From Podarcis pityusensis (taxonomy: Eukaryota): 64,000 nucleotides of DNA. The stretch is from the NCBI GenBank assembly GCA_964106645.2, contig OZ067047.1. One strand, 5' to 3'. The notes beneath the pieces were generated by a model, which saw only the letters and a list, made by a program, of their open reading frames with translations, had not been told where the DNA came from and did no database searches. Positions 7,354 through 49,893 of the stretch are shown one piece after another. Numbering within the stretch: position 1 is the first letter of the stretch; each line of letters opens with the position of its first letter. The position numbers and the translations under genes are program-made.

Positions 7354-7830
7354 CCGTATTTTTTGCTCTATAGGACGCACCTGACCATAGGACACACCTT
7401 GTTTCAGAGGGGGAGAAGAGAACAAGAAAAAAAAATCTCCCCCTCTCTGCTCAGCGCCCCTTCAGCGAAGCAGCAGGAGAAACGGAGCCCCTTCCATTTC
7501 TCCTCCCACTTGGCTGAAGGGGCGCTGCGCAGCTCTCCCTCTCTGCTGAAGCCAGGAGAGTCTTGCTGTGTTCCAGAGGCTTCAGGCAGCTATCCCTGAA
7601 GCCTGGAGAGCGAGAGGGGTCAGTGCGCACCAACCCCTCTCACTCTCCAGGCTTCAGCGAAAGCAACGCGAAGCCTCCAGAGCACGGAGGGAGCGCTCCC
7701 CCTGCACTTTGGAGGCTTCGCGTTGCTATCGCTGAAGCCAAGGAGCCTGCATTCGCTCCATAGGAAGCACACACATTTCCCCTTAATTTTGGGAGGGGGA
7801 AAAGTGCGTCCTATAGAGCGAAAAATACGG
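7354..7830. mobile_element. Tc1/mariner-superfamily (Tc2/pogo-like) MITE
   Basis: 27-bp TIR CCGTATTTTT(T/C)GCTCTATAGGACGCAC with 1 mismatch, TA on both sides, and a GC-rich palindromic interior. Confidence 0.9.
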
Positions 7831-8654
7831 TATGCAATTATTCATTTTCACTTCCTACGTACATACAAATAACTCATCCCTTGTCCTTCTTCCACTTGCT
7901 GACCTCCCAGACAGCACTCCAGTCCCAACCTGAACAGCACCTCCACTCTGCCGAAATCCATTCCCAGTTCAGCCATCAGAGCAGAGCAAATCAAGGCAGA
8001 GCTGGTGGGAGGTTAGCAAGTGGAGCAAGCAGGGGGCAGAGCCCTCTCGTCATAAAATGGAGACTCTTTCTCTTCCCAGAGACAGGGAAAGGATATTAAT
8101 GTAATAAATGTGATACAAGTCCAGTTCCAAATCACTTTTGACCTGTTGTGATAGATGGGGCTTGTCTCACTGAGAGTTTGGAATTCTCTAAAAGCACTCC
8201 ATATAAATGAGTAAAAAATATATCCATAAATAGTGAACAACTGGGGGCGACCACAGCCAACTATAGATGAGAAACAAGGAAGGAATTTTCCTGCAAACAA
8301 GGGCCTCTAGGGACCATTCCCTTATTTCCAACCTCTTCAAGCTGCAAAATGGTGATGAACCACAAGCGGTTTCCATGACCTAATGCCCTGGTGGATGCCC
8401 AGGCTGGGGGGAAGATTTGCATTGTGAGAGGGCTAAGTGAAACTACACTGTGTTTCATCTTTCCCCAGTTTGTAACAGTAGCCAATCTCCAAAGGAGTGT
8501 TTCTACTTGTTTTGCATCAAAGTAATTACAACAGTTTAAACATCAGGAGTCTGTATTACAAGGATTAGAACAGGGCAAGGACAAATTGCGCAGTTCCTGC
8601 AGGCTTCTCTATGCTTTCCTGGAGCTTCCAAACATGTGTAATTGTGGTAAAGTG

Positions 8655-8748
8655 GTAAAGGTATCTGAAGAAGTGTGCTTGCACACGAAAGCTCATACCA
8701 AGAACTAACTTAGTTGGTCTTAAAGGTGCTACTGGAAGGATTTTTTTT
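8655..8748 (+). mobile_element. Penelope-like element (PLE) terminal-repeat fragment
   Basis: Flanked by the 14-bp direct repeat ATTGTGGTAAAGTG (8641-8654, 8749-8762). Contains a hammerhead core followed by ttagttggtcttaaaggtgctactgga, which resembles recalled reptile PLE termini. Confidence 0.8.
8660..8699 (+). ncRNA. Minimal type I hammerhead ribozyme motif
   Basis: Stem I GGTAT(8660-64)/ATACC(8695-99). Core CTGAAGA(8665-71) plus an extra A. Stem II GTGTGC-tt-GCACAC(8673-86). GAAA(8687-90). Minimal palindromic stem III AGCT. Predicted cleavage after C8694. Confidence 0.75.
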
Positions 8749-10092
8749 ATTGTGGTAAAGTGAACAGTTACACAATTATTCGCATGTTGCAACCTTCATG
8801 GGTGTGGAGGGGAAGACATGAAAATGTCCCCAAAACTTGCAAACATCACAGGAACCAAATATGCGAGGACTTGATAAATTTACAAAAAAGGTAGGGGTGG
8901 GGGTGTATTAGAGATGTTCACAGAAGCAGCTGAGTATGAGCAAAAGTAGGCTGCCCTTGTGTAAGTGAATTAGGACCAAACTACTTGTGATATTTGCACT
9001 TCGAGGGCAGTAGCGTAGTGGCAAATTCAGAAATGCAGGGGGCCTTATAACAGCCACAGTCACACACCCTTCTAAGATTGTGCAATAATCTTATATAATA
9101 AGAAGAACAATAATAATTAGGGATGCTTTGCAGGGATCAATGCAAATCTCCATGTTTTGCCTTTTAGGTAGACCTATGCACATACATGGGCAATTTCCTT
9201 GGAGCACTCCAATATCTTCTTTCAGAGTGACATAGGTTGTGTTTCCCTTGAAGGGGGGCAAGGGGCAAAATGGGCAGGGCAGATTTAGGTTGTGCTGGGG
9301 GGGGAGTTTCCCACCTTAAGTTCACAGTGCATGTTCATCATCTGATGAATGCAACATCAAGTGATGACTTAAGAGATGTGAAACCACCATTCAGAATCAA
9401 GTGCCACAAACAGCTGTCATACCACATGTTAGCACCACATTCAGCTGTTACTACTGGGTGACACTAAGTCATTGAAGGCTATGAAGGGACGAAGATCCAT
9501 GTATAAACCAGCCCATGAGAATAGCCGCATTGGCTGCTAGAGCAATTCTGCCTTTAATCTCTTCTGGTTTCTGGCTGTTGTCCTTGGCTAACCTCTGTGA
9601 AATTGTCTAAAACACTCTAGAATTTGCATTTGTATTCAATTGAATATTGTGATGTCAAAATTCTGGGAACTGAAGAGGCAGGGCTTGGCCTAGTTCTCTT
9701 TGGCTGTCAATGTACGCCTTTCTCACTCACTGAAAATCTGTGTTTTTAATTATTATTTCCCCTCCAGATGTGTCAGCCTACATTTTTCCACACTGAATCC
9801 TGTTTTGTCATTTCCCGTGCGCATTTCTACTGTTTAAAAAAAGTTTTGTTGTTCTGCGAAATGGGAGAAAGAGGGGGAGAAACAAAAGGGGGTGAGATTT
9901 GAATAGGCATTATTAAAAAAATTAACCCCACTTGCTCATTTATGCTGTCCAAAAGGTGTCAACAATAAAAGGAAGCATAGTACAAAATTTCAATTTATGT
10001 TTCACACAGGGTGCAAGTAAGCATACTTGTGGTGAGCCCCAAATCAAGAGAGTCATGGCAGATTATGCTATGTGAATAGTGATTAGCAAATA

Positions 10093-24721: not shown

Positions 24722-24827
24722 CCCGCTGAGCTGACTGCCACACACAGCACCGCAGCACCGCCAACTGCCGCACCGCTGCCTCGCACCGTGTATCCAGGCT
24801 TCAGCTCCGGGGCACAAGGAACTCAGA

Positions 24828-27800
24828 ATGGCAGCCAACAGCAGCTTCTCGCCATTCAACCCAGCATCTGGAGACTGGGAAGCGTACGCCTCCCGTTTCA
24901 CCTTCCTCCTAGAAGCCAAAGGGGTCACCGACGAAGAAGACGCCAAGAAGAGGGCGATATTCTTCAGCGTCTGCGGAGAGGAGACGTTTGAAATCGCCCG
25001 GGCTCTCCTTGCGCCTGAAGACGTCGCTACTGTTCCATACAAAACAATAATGGAACAGCTGAAGGGGCACTTTTCGCCGCAGCCCTCAGTGGTGGCTCGT
25101 CGAAATGCCTTCTACGCAAAGCGGCAAGCCCCTGGGGAAACCATAACTGGGTTTGTGACCTCTCTCCGCCAAGCCGCCCGGTTCTGCAACTTCTCAGAGC
25201 TGGAGAACATGCTTCGTGACCGCCTCGTCGGTGGCCTGAAGGATGAGAAGCTGCAACGACGCCTCTACGCTAAGAAGGACCTAACGTTCCAGGTCGCTCT
25301 GGAGGAGGCCCTGGCAACAGAAGCTGCCGAGAGGTCGACCCAAGAGGCACGGCCGAGCCTGCCATCCCAACCGAGGGTCCACCATGAAGACCTCACCGAC
25401 GACTCAGGATCCGACAGGGAGGAGGTGCACCGAGTACAGCAGCGCACTCAAGCAGCGCACAGACCACAGCTGCCTCGACGAGAAGGAGGGAACTGCGCAA
25501 GCTGCGGGGAGAGTCACGAGAGGAGGACCTGCCGTTTCCGCAACGCAGAGTGCAGGCAGTGCAGAAAATCGGGACACATCGCCCGGGTGTGTCGGGCTCG
25601 GCCCACCCGACACCAGGCATCAGATGACCAATCCAAGAGCCCCAGGTCCCGGGGCCCAACGCACCAAGGCAACTCGACGGAGCTCACGGACTTCCAGGTA
25701 TACCAGTTGCCCCACCCCAACGTAGAGAAAATTTATGTAGAGGTACAGATAGAGGGGGCCCCATGCCGCATGGAGCTTGACACGGGTTCAACTCTATCCA
25801 TAATCTCGGCAAGGACCTTAAGGAAACTGTGTCCCACTGGGGGTCCCAAACTCAGGCCGGCCCCATTCACCCTCCGGGACTTCCAGAAACGTAAGGTCCC
25901 CACAATGGGGGTGGGGACCTTCAGGGTGCAATACCGAGGGCGGACGCGGCAACTGGACTTGCTTGTGGTCAAGGGCCCCTACATTAGCTTACTGGGATTG
26001 GCATGGTTTGGACCACTGGGGCTAGCTGTCACCGGGGTGAACCACACTAGCTTACAAGTGGACGTGGACGCCATATGCAAGGAATTTCCAGGGGTTTTCG
26101 ATGGGAAATTGGGACAGTATACGGGCCCCCCCATTGCGCTACAGCTTGACCCCGCAGTACGACCGGTCAGGCTCAAGGCCCGCCGGGTCCCGTTCGCCTT
26201 GAAACCCCGTATAGACGAGGAATTGGACCGACTCGTAGAGCAAGGAGTGCTGGAGCCGGTGCCTAATGCTCCCTGGGAAACCCCAATCGTCACACCCGTC
26301 AAGCCTAATGGTTCGGTCCGCATCTGCGCAGACTACAAATGTACCATAAACAAGGCCCTCACGGCCCACGCATACCCAGTGCCAGTGGTCAGCCATGTCC
26401 TTGCCACCCTGGCTGGGTCGAAAATTTTTGGCAAGCTGGACTTGGCCCAAGCATATCAACAGCTGCCAGTAGATGAGGCCACAGCAGAGGCACAGACGAT
26501 TGTGACGCACAGAGGAGCGTTCAGGGTAAAGCGGCTGCAATTCGGTGTCAGCGTGGCACCAGGCATATTCCAGAATATAATGGACTCTCTCCTTAAAGGG
26601 ATTCCTGGCGTCACCCCCTTCTTCGATGATGTGTTGATTGCCGGCCCCACACCAGAGGAGTTTGAGGACCGCCTCCGCACCGTTCTGCACCGTTTCCAGA
26701 CGGCGGGTCTCAAGGTGAAGCGGGAAAAATGTCTACTAGGAGTGCCTCAGGTGGACTTTCTGGGATTTATGGTGGACGCAGAAGGGGTCCACCCGACTGG
26801 GGACAAGGTACGGGCCATTTGTGATGCCCCAGCGCCCAAGAGCAAGACTGAACTTCAGGCCTTCTTGGGACTATTGAACTTTTACCATTCCTTCCTTCCC
26901 CACAAGGCGGCGGTAGCGGAGCCCCTACACAGACTCCTGGACAAGCGGGCCCCTTGGGTGTGGGGCCAGCGCCAGGAGGCCGCATTCCAGGCAGTCAAGG
27001 ACTTGCTTGTCTCAAACTCGGTCTTGGCACACTTCGACGAGAGGCTGCCGGTGGTGCTAGCATGCGACGCCTCACCCTATGGCATTGGAGCTGTCCTGGG
27101 GCACCAACTCCCGGATGGAAGAGAGGTACCGGTGGCGTACTTTTCCCAGACACTCAACACCAGACACTTTCCCAGACCGGTGGCGTACTTTTCCCAGACA
27201 CTCAACACAACCGAGCGGAACTACTCGCAAATCGACAAGGAGGGTCTGGCAATCGTAAAGGGAGTAAAAAAATTCCATGATTTCTTGTACGGGCGGCCCT
27301 TCACCGTGGTGACTGACCACAAGCCGTTGCTTGGCTTGTTTGCCCCCGAAAAGCAGACCCCCCAAGTGCTGTCTCCTCGCGTCCTCAGGTGGTCAATTTT
27401 CCTTGCCAGCTACCAGTATGCACTGATTCACCGACCTGGGAAGGCGATGGGCCATGCGGACGCCCTCAGCAGGCTACCACTACCGGAAACAGGCCCTGAC
27501 CCAGCACCTGCACAAGAGGTTATGAGCCTGGAGCTGCTTCCCGACCGCCCCATTCAGGCACAAGAAGTTGCACACCATTCCAAGAAAGATAGGGTCATCT
27601 CCCGGGTCCTGGACTGGGTGTGGAGGGGATGGCCCAGCAGCAGCCCCGGGCCAGAATTCGCCGGCTACACAACCCGCAAACATGAACTGTCGGCCCACAA
27701 GGGGTGCCTGTTATGGGGAAGCAGAGTCGTTGTTCCCCAGCCCCTCTGCAAAAGGGTCCTCACAGCCCTACACGAGACACATCCAGGGGTAGTAAGAATG

Positions 27801-28952
27801 AAGGCCCTTGCCAGGAGTTATGTGTGGTGGCCGGGGATCGATGGAGAGATAGAGGCCTGGGTCAAACACTGCCAGGCCTGCCAAGAATCCCGCCCAGATC
27901 CCCCAAGGGCCCCAGTCCAGTCCTGGGAGTCCGCCCGAGCACCATGGTCACGCCTGCATGTGGATTTCGCTGGCCCCTTTCAGGGGAAAACATTCTTCAT
28001 AGTGGTGGACTCCTACACCAAATGGCTGGAAGTCGCACTGGTACCGTCCACTTCCACGTCCGCAGCCATCCGGGTACTACGCAGGCTGTTTGCAACCCAC
28101 GGGCTCCCTGACACTCTCGTCTCAGACAACGGGACTGCATTTACGTCAGGAGAATTCCAAACCTTCACAGCGCAGAACGCCATCCGCCACATCCGTTCGG
28201 CGCCGTTCCACCCTGCCACCAATGGCCAAGCAGAACGCATGGTGCGGACCACCAAGGACACCCTTCGCCGCATGACGCAAGGGGACTGGGAGTACCGCCT
28301 TGCCACATTCCTTCTAGCACAGCACAGCACCCCCAGCTCAACGACTGGCCGGAGCCCCGCTGAACTACTAATGGGTCGGCGCCTTGCAATCAGATTGGAC
28401 CGCCTTCACCCCGATAGAGCTCAGGATGAGGTAGTGGTGGGGGAAGGCAGGAACCCCCGGACCTTCGAGGCCCAGGACCCAGTGTACGCAAAGAATTTTG
28501 GGGCAGGCCCAGCATGGGTACCCGCCACAATCACCAGGGTCACTGGCCCCGTGTCGTACGAGGTGCTAACGGATGGGGGGCAATGCTGGCGCCGCCACTG
28601 CGACCAGATACGGCGACGATTCCCGGGAGAAAACCAGGAGGAGGACAGGTCAGAGGAGTCCCAAGGGAACAGCGGGGCAGTGAGGCCCATAGAGCAGGAG
28701 GGGCCAGCAGGAGAGGCAGAATCAGTAAATACAGAGAGGACCCGTGAGGCCGAAAGGACACCGGAACCAGAACCACGACTGAGCGAGCCGGTTGCACCAG
28801 ACCAAACAGCCGCATCACAGCCAGCATCCTTGGAACACGAGCCAGAACCCGGAGCCCGGACCAGGGAACACCCCAGGCCACAACGCACACGTAGGCCGCC
28901 GGCATACCTTGAGGACTATGAATGCGACCTCCCGGGCAGGACTGGAACTTAG
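24828..28952 (+). CDS. Gag-Pol polyprotein, 1374 aa (K02A2.6-like)
   Basis: Two zinc knuckles (CASCGESHERRTC, CRQCRKSGHIARVC), protease LDTGS, RT LDLAQAY..FFDD, RNase H DAS..DKEGLA..TDH..DALSR, integrase HETH..CQAC with D(FAG)/D(NG)/E(RMV), and a GPVSY motif. No env or chromodomain. Confidence 0.97.
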   Translation: MAANSSFSPFNPASGDWEAYASRFTFLLEAKGVTDEEDAKKRAIFFSVCGEETFEIARALLAPEDVATVPYKTIMEQLKGHFSPQPSVVARRNAFYAKRQAPGETITGFVTSLRQAARFCNFSELENMLRDRLVGGLKDEKLQRRLYAKKDLTFQVALEEALATEAAERSTQEARPSLPSQPRVHHEDLTDDSGSDREEVHRVQQRTQAAHRPQLPRREGGNCASCGESHERRTCRFRNAECRQCRKSGHIARVCRARPTRHQASDDQSKSPRSRGPTHQGNSTELTDFQVYQLPHPNVEKIYVEVQIEGAPCRMELDTGSTLSIISARTLRKLCPTGGPKLRPAPFTLRDFQKRKVPTMGVGTFRVQYRGRTRQLDLLVVKGPYISLLGLAWFGPLGLAVTGVNHTSLQVDVDAICKEFPGVFDGKLGQYTGPPIALQLDPAVRPVRLKARRVPFALKPRIDEELDRLVEQGVLEPVPNAPWETPIVTPVKPNGSVRICADYKCTINKALTAHAYPVPVVSHVLATLAGSKIFGKLDLAQAYQQLPVDEATAEAQTIVTHRGAFRVKRLQFGVSVAPGIFQNIMDSLLKGIPGVTPFFDDVLIAGPTPEEFEDRLRTVLHRFQTAGLKVKREKCLLGVPQVDFLGFMVDAEGVHPTGDKVRAICDAPAPKSKTELQAFLGLLNFYHSFLPHKAAVAEPLHRLLDKRAPWVWGQRQEAAFQAVKDLLVSNSVLAHFDERLPVVLACDASPYGIGAVLGHQLPDGREVPVAYFSQTLNTRHFPRPVAYFSQTLNTTERNYSQIDKEGLAIVKGVKKFHDFLYGRPFTVVTDHKPLLGLFAPEKQTPQVLSPRVLRWSIFLASYQYALIHRPGKAMGHADALSRLPLPETGPDPAPAQEVMSLELLPDRPIQAQEVAHHSKKDRVISRVLDWVWRGWPSSSPGPEFAGYTTRKHELSAHKGCLLWGSRVVVPQPLCKRVLTALHETHPGVVRMKALARSYVWWPGIDGEIEAWVKHCQACQESRPDPPRAPVQSWESARAPWSRLHVDFAGPFQGKTFFIVVDSYTKWLEVALVPSTSTSAAIRVLRRLFATHGLPDTLVSDNGTAFTSGEFQTFTAQNAIRHIRSAPFHPATNGQAERMVRTTKDTLRRMTQGDWEYRLATFLLAQHSTPSSTTGRSPAELLMGRRLAIRLDRLHPDRAQDEVVVGEGRNPRTFEAQDPVYAKNFGAGPAWVPATITRVTGPVSYEVLTDGGQCWRRHCDQIRRRFPGENQEEDRSEESQGNSGAVRPIEQEGPAGEAESVNTERTREAERTPEPEPRLSEPVAPDQTAASQPASLEHEPEPGARTREHPRPQRTRRPPAYLEDYECDLPGRTGT

Positions 28953-48409: not shown

Positions 48410-49423
48410 TTATAAGTTGGCAAGAAGCCAGCGGATCAGTCCACACTGAGGCCTTTTCCCCATCGCTTCCTCCATCTGCACTCTTTCGAGGTACCTCATT
48501 ACTCTCTGAAGGATATCTCCCACGCTGTAGCCCTTCTTGGTTGCCTTCTGAGCCAGCCGTGGAAGATCAGCCAGCTCTCCTTCTCTGTCATTTAAGAATG
48601 TCAGGTTGGGCACATTGAAGTGAGAAGCCACCATCCACTGGAGGACAGCCTGGAGCTCTTTGTTCAGTGAATCGCTTTCGCCATTCTGGTTAGTCACGAT
48701 CACCCCATTCGGACCCATTTGCCTCATATTAGCTCTTACTAGGGAAGCTCTCCTCGGCACTCCTAAATGTTGGGATGAACCACTGTATTGCTTATGTGAT
48801 GTGTCGCCACTGGCTAAGTTGGAGCCATTGCCCCCAGTCTCTAAGAGACACAACTTGGTCATAGACTTCACCAGTTGGTCAATATCCAGCATCTCCATAG
48901 GGTCCATGTTGCCATACATCTCCCATGGATTCGCATTTTGTTTTGCAACAGCCTTTATCCTCTGGGGCCTGCTTTCAGGAGGAGGGGCCTGTCGGTGGCC
49001 CCTGTTTGTGTTGCTGGAATTGTCTTCTGCATTGGAAACAGCTTCACGCATCACCTTCTGGATGGTTGACGAGAGGATACTTGTAAGATCTTCCTTTCTA
49101 GGTTCTTGGTGTTGAGGTTGGTGTTGAGGTTCCTGCCGCCCCCCTCGTCTCGAAGGGCTAAGGTTCGGGAACTTGGAGCCCATGCTTCCCGTTCCCCTCT
49201 CAAAATTAGTATCGGGGCGATTGAAGCCAAATGAAGAACTACTTGGCTTAGGAGCTCCACCATGCTTGCTTTTGTCCAATAGCTGCTTCTGTATCTTCGT
49301 TAATGCACTATCGATAATGTGTTTTGCACATTCATCCATTGAAATGAGCTTTTCTAGACATTTGCTTCCAGAGGGATGAGGCTCTGTCTGTCGGCTTCCC
49401 TTTTCCTTTCCATGGCTATACAT
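48410..49423 (-). CDS. AKAP3/AKAP4-like sperm fibrous-sheath A-kinase anchor family protein, C-terminal portion only (337 aa)
   Basis: Aligns with the recalled AKAP4/3 C-terminus: AKHIIDSALTKIQ ~ AKDLIVSALKLIQ; IDQLVKSMTKLCL ~ IDKLVESVMKLCL; LNKELQAVLQWMVASHFNVPNL ~ LQKQLQAVLQWIAASQFNVPML; KGYSVG; terminal WLLANL*. The ATG has A at -3. An in-frame TGA lies at 49469-71. Family assignment is confident; functional status and orthology are not. Confidence 0.8.
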   Translation of the reverse strand: MYSHGKEKGSRQTEPHPSGSKCLEKLISMDECAKHIIDSALTKIQKQLLDKSKHGGAPKPSSSSFGFNRPDTNFERGTGSMGSKFPNLSPSRRGGRQEPQHQPQHQEPRKEDLTSILSSTIQKVMREAVSNAEDNSSNTNRGHRQAPPPESRPQRIKAVAKQNANPWEMYGNMDPMEMLDIDQLVKSMTKLCLLETGGNGSNLASGDTSHKQYSGSSQHLGVPRRASLVRANMRQMGPNGVIVTNQNGESDSLNKELQAVLQWMVASHFNVPNLTFLNDREGELADLPRLAQKATKKGYSVGDILQRVMRYLERVQMEEAMGKRPQCGLIRWLLANL

Positions 49424-49893
49424 TTTGCTGTTCTGATTGCTGGAGCTGTTCCGATGACCTTGACAGACTCAAGATGTTGTCTCCTCTCTCAGCTTTCTGT
49501 GCTTTTCTGCAGGCCCCTGGTGAATACTCATGTGTGGACAATGCCGTTTCCATGGTGGCAATGACATCATAAAGCACCAGTGTATTAACCAGCAGCTTGT
49601 GATTTGCCAGCTATGCCTTGGCAAGATATTGCTTTGCAATGTTCAAGTTTAACTTGGTTCTCTATGTGTAGAGAACCTCAGGCCTTGGGTCTCCAAGCCT
49701 TGTCTGTCTGCTGCTTGGGACACTCCCCAAACCACACCTACTTTCCCCATGGCAATCTCCCCATGAACCCTGCTTCGCACTTTACTCAAGTATTTTTGCC
49801 TGGCTGGAATGTGTCTTTAAACTCTGATAATACTTTTTTGCTTTCCTGGATGGAAGATGGGAGGGTGGATGAGTTTGTGTAGAAACTAGTATA
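49424..49893 (-). pseudogene. Decayed upstream AKAP3/4-like coding relic, possibly now 5' UTR
   Basis: Weak AKAP-like blocks sit in other frames: ATMETAL..ACRKAQKAERGDNIL (~STMKAEM..PCKSLTSAEKVGEHIL) at about 49470-49560, and SFYTN..IQ (~SFYVN..IQ) at 49873-49887. They are separated by stops. Confidence 0.45.

Follow-up and report, generated by a model that had tools for sequence, protein, structure and literature searches.

The hammerhead-bearing insertion at positions 8641 to 8762 of the 64,000-nucleotide stretch of Podarcis pityusensis DNA analyzed here (contig OZ067047.1; the window) is probably a recent, dead-on-arrival stub of a Penelope-like element (PLE), likely of the Neptune type, that has an intact open reading frame (ORF). 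The stub is most readily read as a full cDNA of the first ~90 nt of a capped, uncleaved RNA. Direct observations are the identity of the parent element, the empty site, the copy number, the distributions of copy ends, the pairing of one short with one long arm, and the fit to a 12-nt stagger.

A recent insertion with a duplicated target

The 14-bp sequence ATTGTGGTAAAGTG was found by direct sequence check at 8641-8654 and again at 8749-8762 (both plus strand), flanking 94 bp. In contigs of three of the four public runs (X2, X3, and X5), 8640 is followed directly by 8749; 108 bp are absent, and 14 letters at the joint could belong to either side. Run X2 has the same species label as the best-matching run, X1, and runs X3 and X5 have other species labels; no joint at the insertion was listed for the contigs of X1. 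The run search listed no RNA run, a result that carries no weight for or against expression. Since contigs from relatives and from a same-label sample have the empty site, the insertion is real, recent, and likely polymorphic. The initial annotation had described an exact target duplication around a 94-bp insert and had proposed a search for an orthologous empty site; the sequence itself and the three runs with the empty site, one of them under the same species label, bear out the duplication.

Two parts of that description required adjustment. Sequence of the PLE pseudo-LTR (pLTR), corresponding to element positions +1 to +91, occupies 8661-8751 (plus strand), with its last 3 nt shared with the right duplicate, and is 100% identical to an autonomous unit at another locus. 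The remaining 6 of the 94 bp between the duplicates (GTAAAG, 8655-8660, plus strand) repeat the target rather than the PLE, as comparison of sequence and element reveals, and consist of target-derived filler plus an untemplated G. This G8660, which lacks an element origin, is likely cap-derived or due to microhomology. Similarly, the duplication is 14 bp in appearance, but the true nick stagger at this site was probably 12 nt, in which case the left copy would be confined to 8643-8654; a duplication of 14 allows staggers of 11 to 14, so 12 fits.

No gene enclosing the insertion was found, and the proposal that it lies antisense to a host gene, sparing the pre-mRNA, could not be upheld. The sole host coding exon found, a terminal exon of the AKAP_110 family (48410-49468, minus strand; E = 2e-24), closes with a stop codon at a distance of 40 kb; a PDB sequence search with it returned no relative. 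Pfam was run on 25 and a further 136 frames, which took in the 150 longest among the 182 frames of at least 52 aa that are free of stops in 1-24,000; not one of these 150 reached the cut-off, and the only hit in that interval was a sub-cut-off bacterial match. Motifs of kinases and chloride channels gave nothing credible in the window or in the 50 kb upstream, and a crude exon scorer gave nothing recognizable; short exons could be missed in such host-gene scans. Other repeats were also encountered in the window. An uninterrupted 1,405-codon LTR retrotransposon frame (24735-28952, plus strand) encodes protease, reverse transcriptase (RT), RNase H, and integrase, and looks young, with a short peptide stretch duplicated in the RNase H region. 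Strong GC-rich hairpins at 7586-7812, with many weak miRNA-model matches below gathering scores, probably represent an inverted-repeat mobile element, and a further repeat lies at 9008-9153, where contigs of all four runs skip ~70 to 76 bp at 9032-9109.

The hammerhead motif of the window copy

The motif reads, 5' to 3', GUAU-CUGAAGA-A-GUGUGC(UU)GCACAC-GAAA-GC-UC-AUAC, and occurs once in the window against 0.00 expected by chance. From the sequence, its folds, and the published motif description (PMC4209133, in the text available), it was assigned as a minimal type-I hammerhead at 8661-8698 on the plus strand. It comprises the 5' strand of stem I (GUAU, 8661-8664), the core CUGAAGA (8665-8671), an extra A (8672), stem II (8673-8686), the stretch GAAA-GC-UC (8687-8694, with GAAA at 8687-8690), in which the palindrome AGCU spans 8690-8693, and the 3' strand of stem I (AUAC, 8695-8698), with cleavage predicted by motif position after C8694. 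The CUGANGA/GAAA/NUH core, the G10.1-C11.1 pair, the extra nucleotide after A9, and the palindromic 15.2-16.2 positions all fit that description, and the extra A, initially annotated as a natural variant, is indeed a published feature of PLE minimal hammerheads (PMC4209133). The core, stem I, stem II, and AGCU palindrome are as first described. The fifth stem-I pair (G8660-C8699), on the other hand, is not encoded by the element, which has T before +1 in 49 of 49 contexts with upstream sequence; its G comes from the junction. As the window copy belongs to a class of copies that begin at +1 and are preceded by G (see below), this pair is a junction product.

An Rfam covariance-model scan of the motif region, which had been suggested as a check, yielded 16 matches at E ≤ 10 with no hammerhead among them, and the 122-mer folded no better than shuffled sequences (z = 0.72). 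A motif that lacks helix III, the "minimal" type described in PMC4209133, is expected to give both outcomes. The predicted probability of stem I was 0.53 for +1 to +45 and 0.11 for +1 to +91; it was at most 0.03 in all eight upstream-extended folds, compared with 0.02 to 0.70 for folds starting from -2 or +1. Cofolding predicted a dimer joined by intermolecular stems I and II (-35.7 versus -23.6 kcal/mol), with the AGCU helix left unformed. Across 30 loci, all six stem II pairs were kept in 28 and all four stem I pairs in 26; changes fell in the loop or yielded G-U pairs, with no double-sided change seen.

The upstream pLTR can pair with the catalytic core through 10 bp and a 3-nt bulge (element -12 to +10; 7375-7354, minus strand, in locus L061), and in read-through RNA this predicted pairing might possibly act as an off-switch. 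The anti-core hairpin depends on the folding window, with probabilities of 0.75 to 0.99 in some and below 0.05 in others, and is only a lead. Copies differ with age: in older ones (L183 to L211) stem II is perfectly palindromic, the loop is AU, and U is often found at the cut position, and in copies of the young burst the loop is UU and the cut position is C. Judged from its structure, the lone motif of the stub, without stem III, would cleave poorly, and the parental ribozyme would depend on a partner copy or on the ORF protein. A single Schistosoma mansoni motif did not cleave, and dimers cleaved at a low level, according to the text available of PMC4209133.

The parent element and its family

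Sequence trailing some of the copies was traced to locus L061, where 3,010-bp units, each with a 910-aa ORF, lie in tandem. The ATG lies at +98, with the ribozyme ~60 nt before it. The ORF product has an RVT_1 domain above the cut-off (residues 438-586; E = 4e-12) plus a GIY-YIG match at the C terminus (residues 808-856; E = 2e-4) that scored 22.0 against a Pfam cut-off of 22.6, 0.6 bit short. Between them lies a CNKPRCQLC (CX4CxxC) linker; a PDB sequence search with the 910-aa ORF returned no relative. A CX2-5CxxC linker between RT and endonuclease (EN) marks the Neptune and Nematis clades according to PMC8557442, and the PLEs found in vertebrates are Neptune and Poseidon only, as stated in the text available of bioRxiv 10.64898/2026.07.22.740005. 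The parent is likely a Neptune-type PLE, a clade assignment made from the linker motif. It also has traits of EN+ PLEs, namely tandem or partial-tandem pLTRs, inverted copies, and a 30- to 40-bp tail.

A first genome search gave at least 67 matches, with the best 40 of 592 candidates scored. The exact ribozyme 30-mer occurs in 4,600 genome copies, compared with 0 for the reversed control, the exact downstream 33-mer in 4,729 (control, 0), and a loose core pattern in 9,672 matches (control, 4). The insert is in this way shown to be repeated genome-wide, and its reading as a PLE terminal repeat with a minimal hammerhead is supported, 8661-8751 being the front of an autonomous PLE of the same genome. 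From the complete identity to the front of the parent and the thousands of copies it follows that the insert is a PLE stub and not a separate retrozyme. The alternative first offered, a tiny retrozyme-like nonautonomous family, does not agree with copies that vary at both ends and grade into ORF-containing pieces. Short tandem arrays with units of ~170 to 190 bp were also identified (L014, 1500-1970; L005, 1504-1775; and L010), in which different ORF positions rejoin +1 or -1; L014 holds three ribozyme copies at 190-bp spacing. These arrays are natural ribozyme dimers and trimers and possible seeds of retrozymes.

5' ends and the ribozyme cut site

To locate 5' ends, 97 anchors were taken in order on chromosome C1 from the first 100 listed, with one duplicated locus counted twice; as the anchor motif is downstream of the cut site, there was no selection for an intact ribozyme. 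Thirty-five ends were at -2 to +5, 39 lay upstream, scattered to -1388, and 23 were at +6 to +40. Genome-wide, 788 ends were at -1, 187 at 0, and 667 at +1. The motif TATATAG starts 30 nt upstream of the A (-2) of TCAGT and is retained in older copies. In the +1 class, G precedes in 59 of 100 listed copies where the element has T (P = 2e-9 against 0.30), and in the -1 class, the preceding base is T in 87 of the 100 listed copies, against A in the element; a -2 class makes up, by rough estimate, ~5 of 100 listed, 4 of them with G. No constant sequence was found further upstream at 30 loci of the -1 class, and among 28 such loci inspected ~4 may result from re-jumps into stem II, and in ~4 there is microhomology to the opposite arm. 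An origin of the T at -2 in a subfamily variant was ruled out, since all 49 contexts have AGT there.

Reverse transcription through a cap adds C opposite the cap, giving an extra G. The extra G before +1, the class to which the window copy belongs, fits such read-through as far as junction sequences can tell. We infer that RNAs starting at the initiator A were mostly miscopied or stopped at that base, for which m6Am at the A is a guess at the cause. The start site, the cap, and any cleavage would thereby be read from DNA junctions, and several points count against a start site. Element positions -5 to -1 are complementary to +5 to +9, and the hairpin predicted with the core could favor junctions at -1 and +1 without a start site; TTTCAG directly before position 0 is also splice-acceptor-like; and Drosophila virilis Penelope has a TATA-less internal promoter, according to the text available of PMC2377424.

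One rival reading is an ordinary random 5' truncation of long read-through cDNA, with the pile-up at -1 and +1 marking an RT pause, fold-back, or microhomology rather than an RNA end. The complementarity just described, the 39 of 97 sampled arms that run upstream to scattered ends, the templated sequence above the initiator in ~95 of the 100 that were listed from 2,419 matches, and the junctions that are palindromic overlaps all speak for it. However, truncation leaves unexplained the untemplated G before +1 and the T before -1 (59 and 87 of 100 listed, respectively), the 30-nt TATA spacing, and the tandem units in which varied ORF positions are joined back to a common +1 or -1 edge, and we consider it unlikely. 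The "truncated end of a PLE" of the initial annotation is probably the wrong picture for the window copy, as its 5' edge falls where ends pile up genome-wide, at the likely start of transcription.

Ends at the predicted ribozyme cut site (+35) formed no peak genome-wide, with 15 at this position compared with 11 at the control position +37 (P = 0.56). The complementary class adds 5 ends, for a total of 20 of ~4,700 copies, and two of the +35 matches are palindromic overlaps through stem I. From the missing peak it follows that inserted ends are not set by ribozyme cleavage, in agreement with core mutants that had no effect on insertion in PMC11167929. At L144 (1359-1540), 35- to 36-bp units restart five times at exactly +35, the clearest hint that a cleaved template was used, and L251 is a pair with both arms at +35; these two loci hint, by sequence, that cleaved RNA may occasionally be copied.

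The absence of a +35 peak also weighs against a self-propagating nonautonomous retrozyme or SINE of ~90 to 190 nt that moves via cleaved circular RNA. Short tandem arrays such as L014 and L005 do exist, and animal retrozymes have been proposed as PLE derivatives, as stated in the text available of bioRxiv 10.64898/2026.07.22.740005, but the window copy is a monomer, unit junctions vary between arrays and lie at +1 or -1 rather than at the cut site, and ends and fillers differ per locus, so that this explanation is largely refuted for the window copy and very improbable. Least probable is an origin of the stubs by splicing, with a splice acceptor (TTTCAG|TGTATC) at the 5' edge, as suggested by the pyrimidine tract and CAG directly upstream and by the D. 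virilis Penelope intron that ends at helix I (PMC4209133, text available), since an exon would begin at position 0, which has only 187 ends compared with 667 and 788 at its neighbors, and no constant upstream exon was found in 30 loci with -1 ends.

3' ends, head-to-head pairs, and the stagger

The 3' ends of the 97 C1 arms were bimodal, with 52 at +88 to +97 and 45 at +119 to +138 (a few were later reclassified). The window copy is of the short, tail-less class, ending in a U-tract (8741-8751, plus strand; class +88 to +97) that is the putative first RT start site. Of 65 clusters in the C1 sample, 34 were head-to-head, and 33 of these 34 combined one short with one long arm, the lone exception being a mis-grouped three-arm cluster. 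For all fetched loci, a duplication of at least 10 bp was found in 67 of 85 candidate pairings, 66 of which were long plus short (P = 9e-19), with one arm ending near +92 and the other near +128; in the exception, L043, one arm runs from +1167 back to +5. The 18 pairings dropped for lack of a duplication comprised 14 long plus short, 3 long plus long, and 1 short plus short, and many were inner arms or mis-grouped clusters. No verified pair had a duplication of less than 12 bp, and 12 was within the allowed range in 65 of 67. Among 33 single-arm copies, the modal duplication was 12 (8 copies), 22 had 11 to 17, and target fillers were common.

With the anole PLE PAc in vitro, both strands were cleaved and extended, two internal RT starts bounded the tail, and uncleaved RNA was used, according to the main text of PMC11167929. 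We infer as the simplest model that both overhangs prime on the front of the RNA at different fixed sites, and that the window copy would be a one-armed outcome of this two-site priming.

Discussion

The events that may have produced the window copy can be ordered as follows. A TATA/initiator promoter in the pLTR would direct RNA synthesis from A(-2) or G(+1), so that the hammerhead forms the first 38 nt of the RNA. The GIY-YIG domain would nick both target strands 12 nt apart, and RT would begin internally at one of two sites, ~+92 or ~+128. Where both target ends prime, each would use a different site, giving a head-to-head palindrome with one "tail"; in the window copy, only the product from the +92 site would be left. 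On reaching the 5' end of the RNA, RT would add C opposite the cap or find G microhomology and then jump to the target overhang, copying GTAAAG, and repair would leave the duplication. As it has neither the TATA box nor the ORF, the stub would not move on its own.

A more speculative reading, which we put forward tentatively and consider doubtful, is an asymmetric dimer of the RT-endonuclease that sets the fixed 12-nt stagger and assigns one start site to each DNA end while using one capped, uncut RNA. The extra G of G-start RNAs would then come from read-through of the cap, and the T found for the initiator A (87 of 100 listed) would be a footprint of cap-adjacent m6Am. The hammerhead would be switched off by the upstream pLTR in read-through RNA and free only at a capped 5' end.

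Hammerheads within the pLTRs of PLEs have been published before, as have single motifs at dispersed sites, inversions, and tails. The pLTR minimal hammerheads of metazoan PLEs (Cervera and De la Pena 2014, PMC4209133) are likewise, in the text available, of type I with a long helix II and a helix I of 4 to 5 bp, have a nucleotide between 9 and 10.1, a G10.1-C11.1 pair, and palindromic 15.2-16.2 positions, and occur as thousands of single dispersed motifs, reptiles included. Unlike those motifs, the family of the window copy, known here by its sequence, is unusually homogeneous, with 4,600 identical 30-mers. The architecture of EN+ PLEs in PMC8557442 and PMC3846280 includes the same partial tandems, inverted 5'-truncated copy, and 30- to 40-bp tail, and for Adineta Pen2a TATA and Inr-like motifs in the pLTR and 8- to 10-bp duplications were noted. 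In these texts the tail is optional or "often at one end" and ascribed to EN resolution, and inversions are ascribed to self-priming on an antisense template; here exactly one arm carries the tail in 66 of 67 pairs, and a stagger of 12 nt agrees with 65 of them.

PAc (Poseidon of Anolis, PMC11167929) has, in its main text, the same two start sites bounding a tail, with both strands cut and extended, and its use of uncleaved RNA and its predicted dimer are further likenesses. It differs in belonging to the Poseidon clade and in a ribozyme that overlaps the ORF start, in contrast to a position ~60 nt before the ATG of an ORF with a Zn-finger-like linker here, and that main text reports no strand difference or strand-by-site rule. 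The non-LTR retrozymes of bioRxiv 10.64898/2026.07.22.740005 are, as described in the text available, also pLTR-derived with a type-I hammerhead, and the reptile consensus averages 176 bp, near the 190-bp arrays found here, which look like template-jump products of the PLE; retrozymes are tandem units each with a ribozyme, whereas the window copy is single. In twin or dual priming of L1 (PMC2837659, text available), both target nicks also prime RT and leave inverted pieces inside a duplication, but this is rare and uses a variable internal site, whereas here it accounts for 34 of 65 clusters, about half of the events, at two fixed sites. The open-access main texts searched contained no one-site-per-strand rule, 12-nt stagger, or cap, initiator, or m6Am footprints for PLEs, and PMC9719517 has no passage that bears on the subject.

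Taken singly, the insertion is unremarkable and probably neutral, and could serve at most as a presence/absence marker. PLE integration is poorly understood, and the thousands of near-identical young copies and the intact ORFs of this genome yield sharp values open to test, namely a pair of RT start sites used one per strand, a stagger of 12 nt, starts of the RNA at -2 and +1, and a ribozyme left uncut. If confirmed, these would account for the long-noted "tail" of PLEs and their head-to-head inversions with no need for an antisense template, and would show that inserted ends are not defined by ribozyme cleavage. Should the asymmetric-dimer reading also be true, the family would be a fossil 5'-RACE of a telomerase-related RT in the germline.
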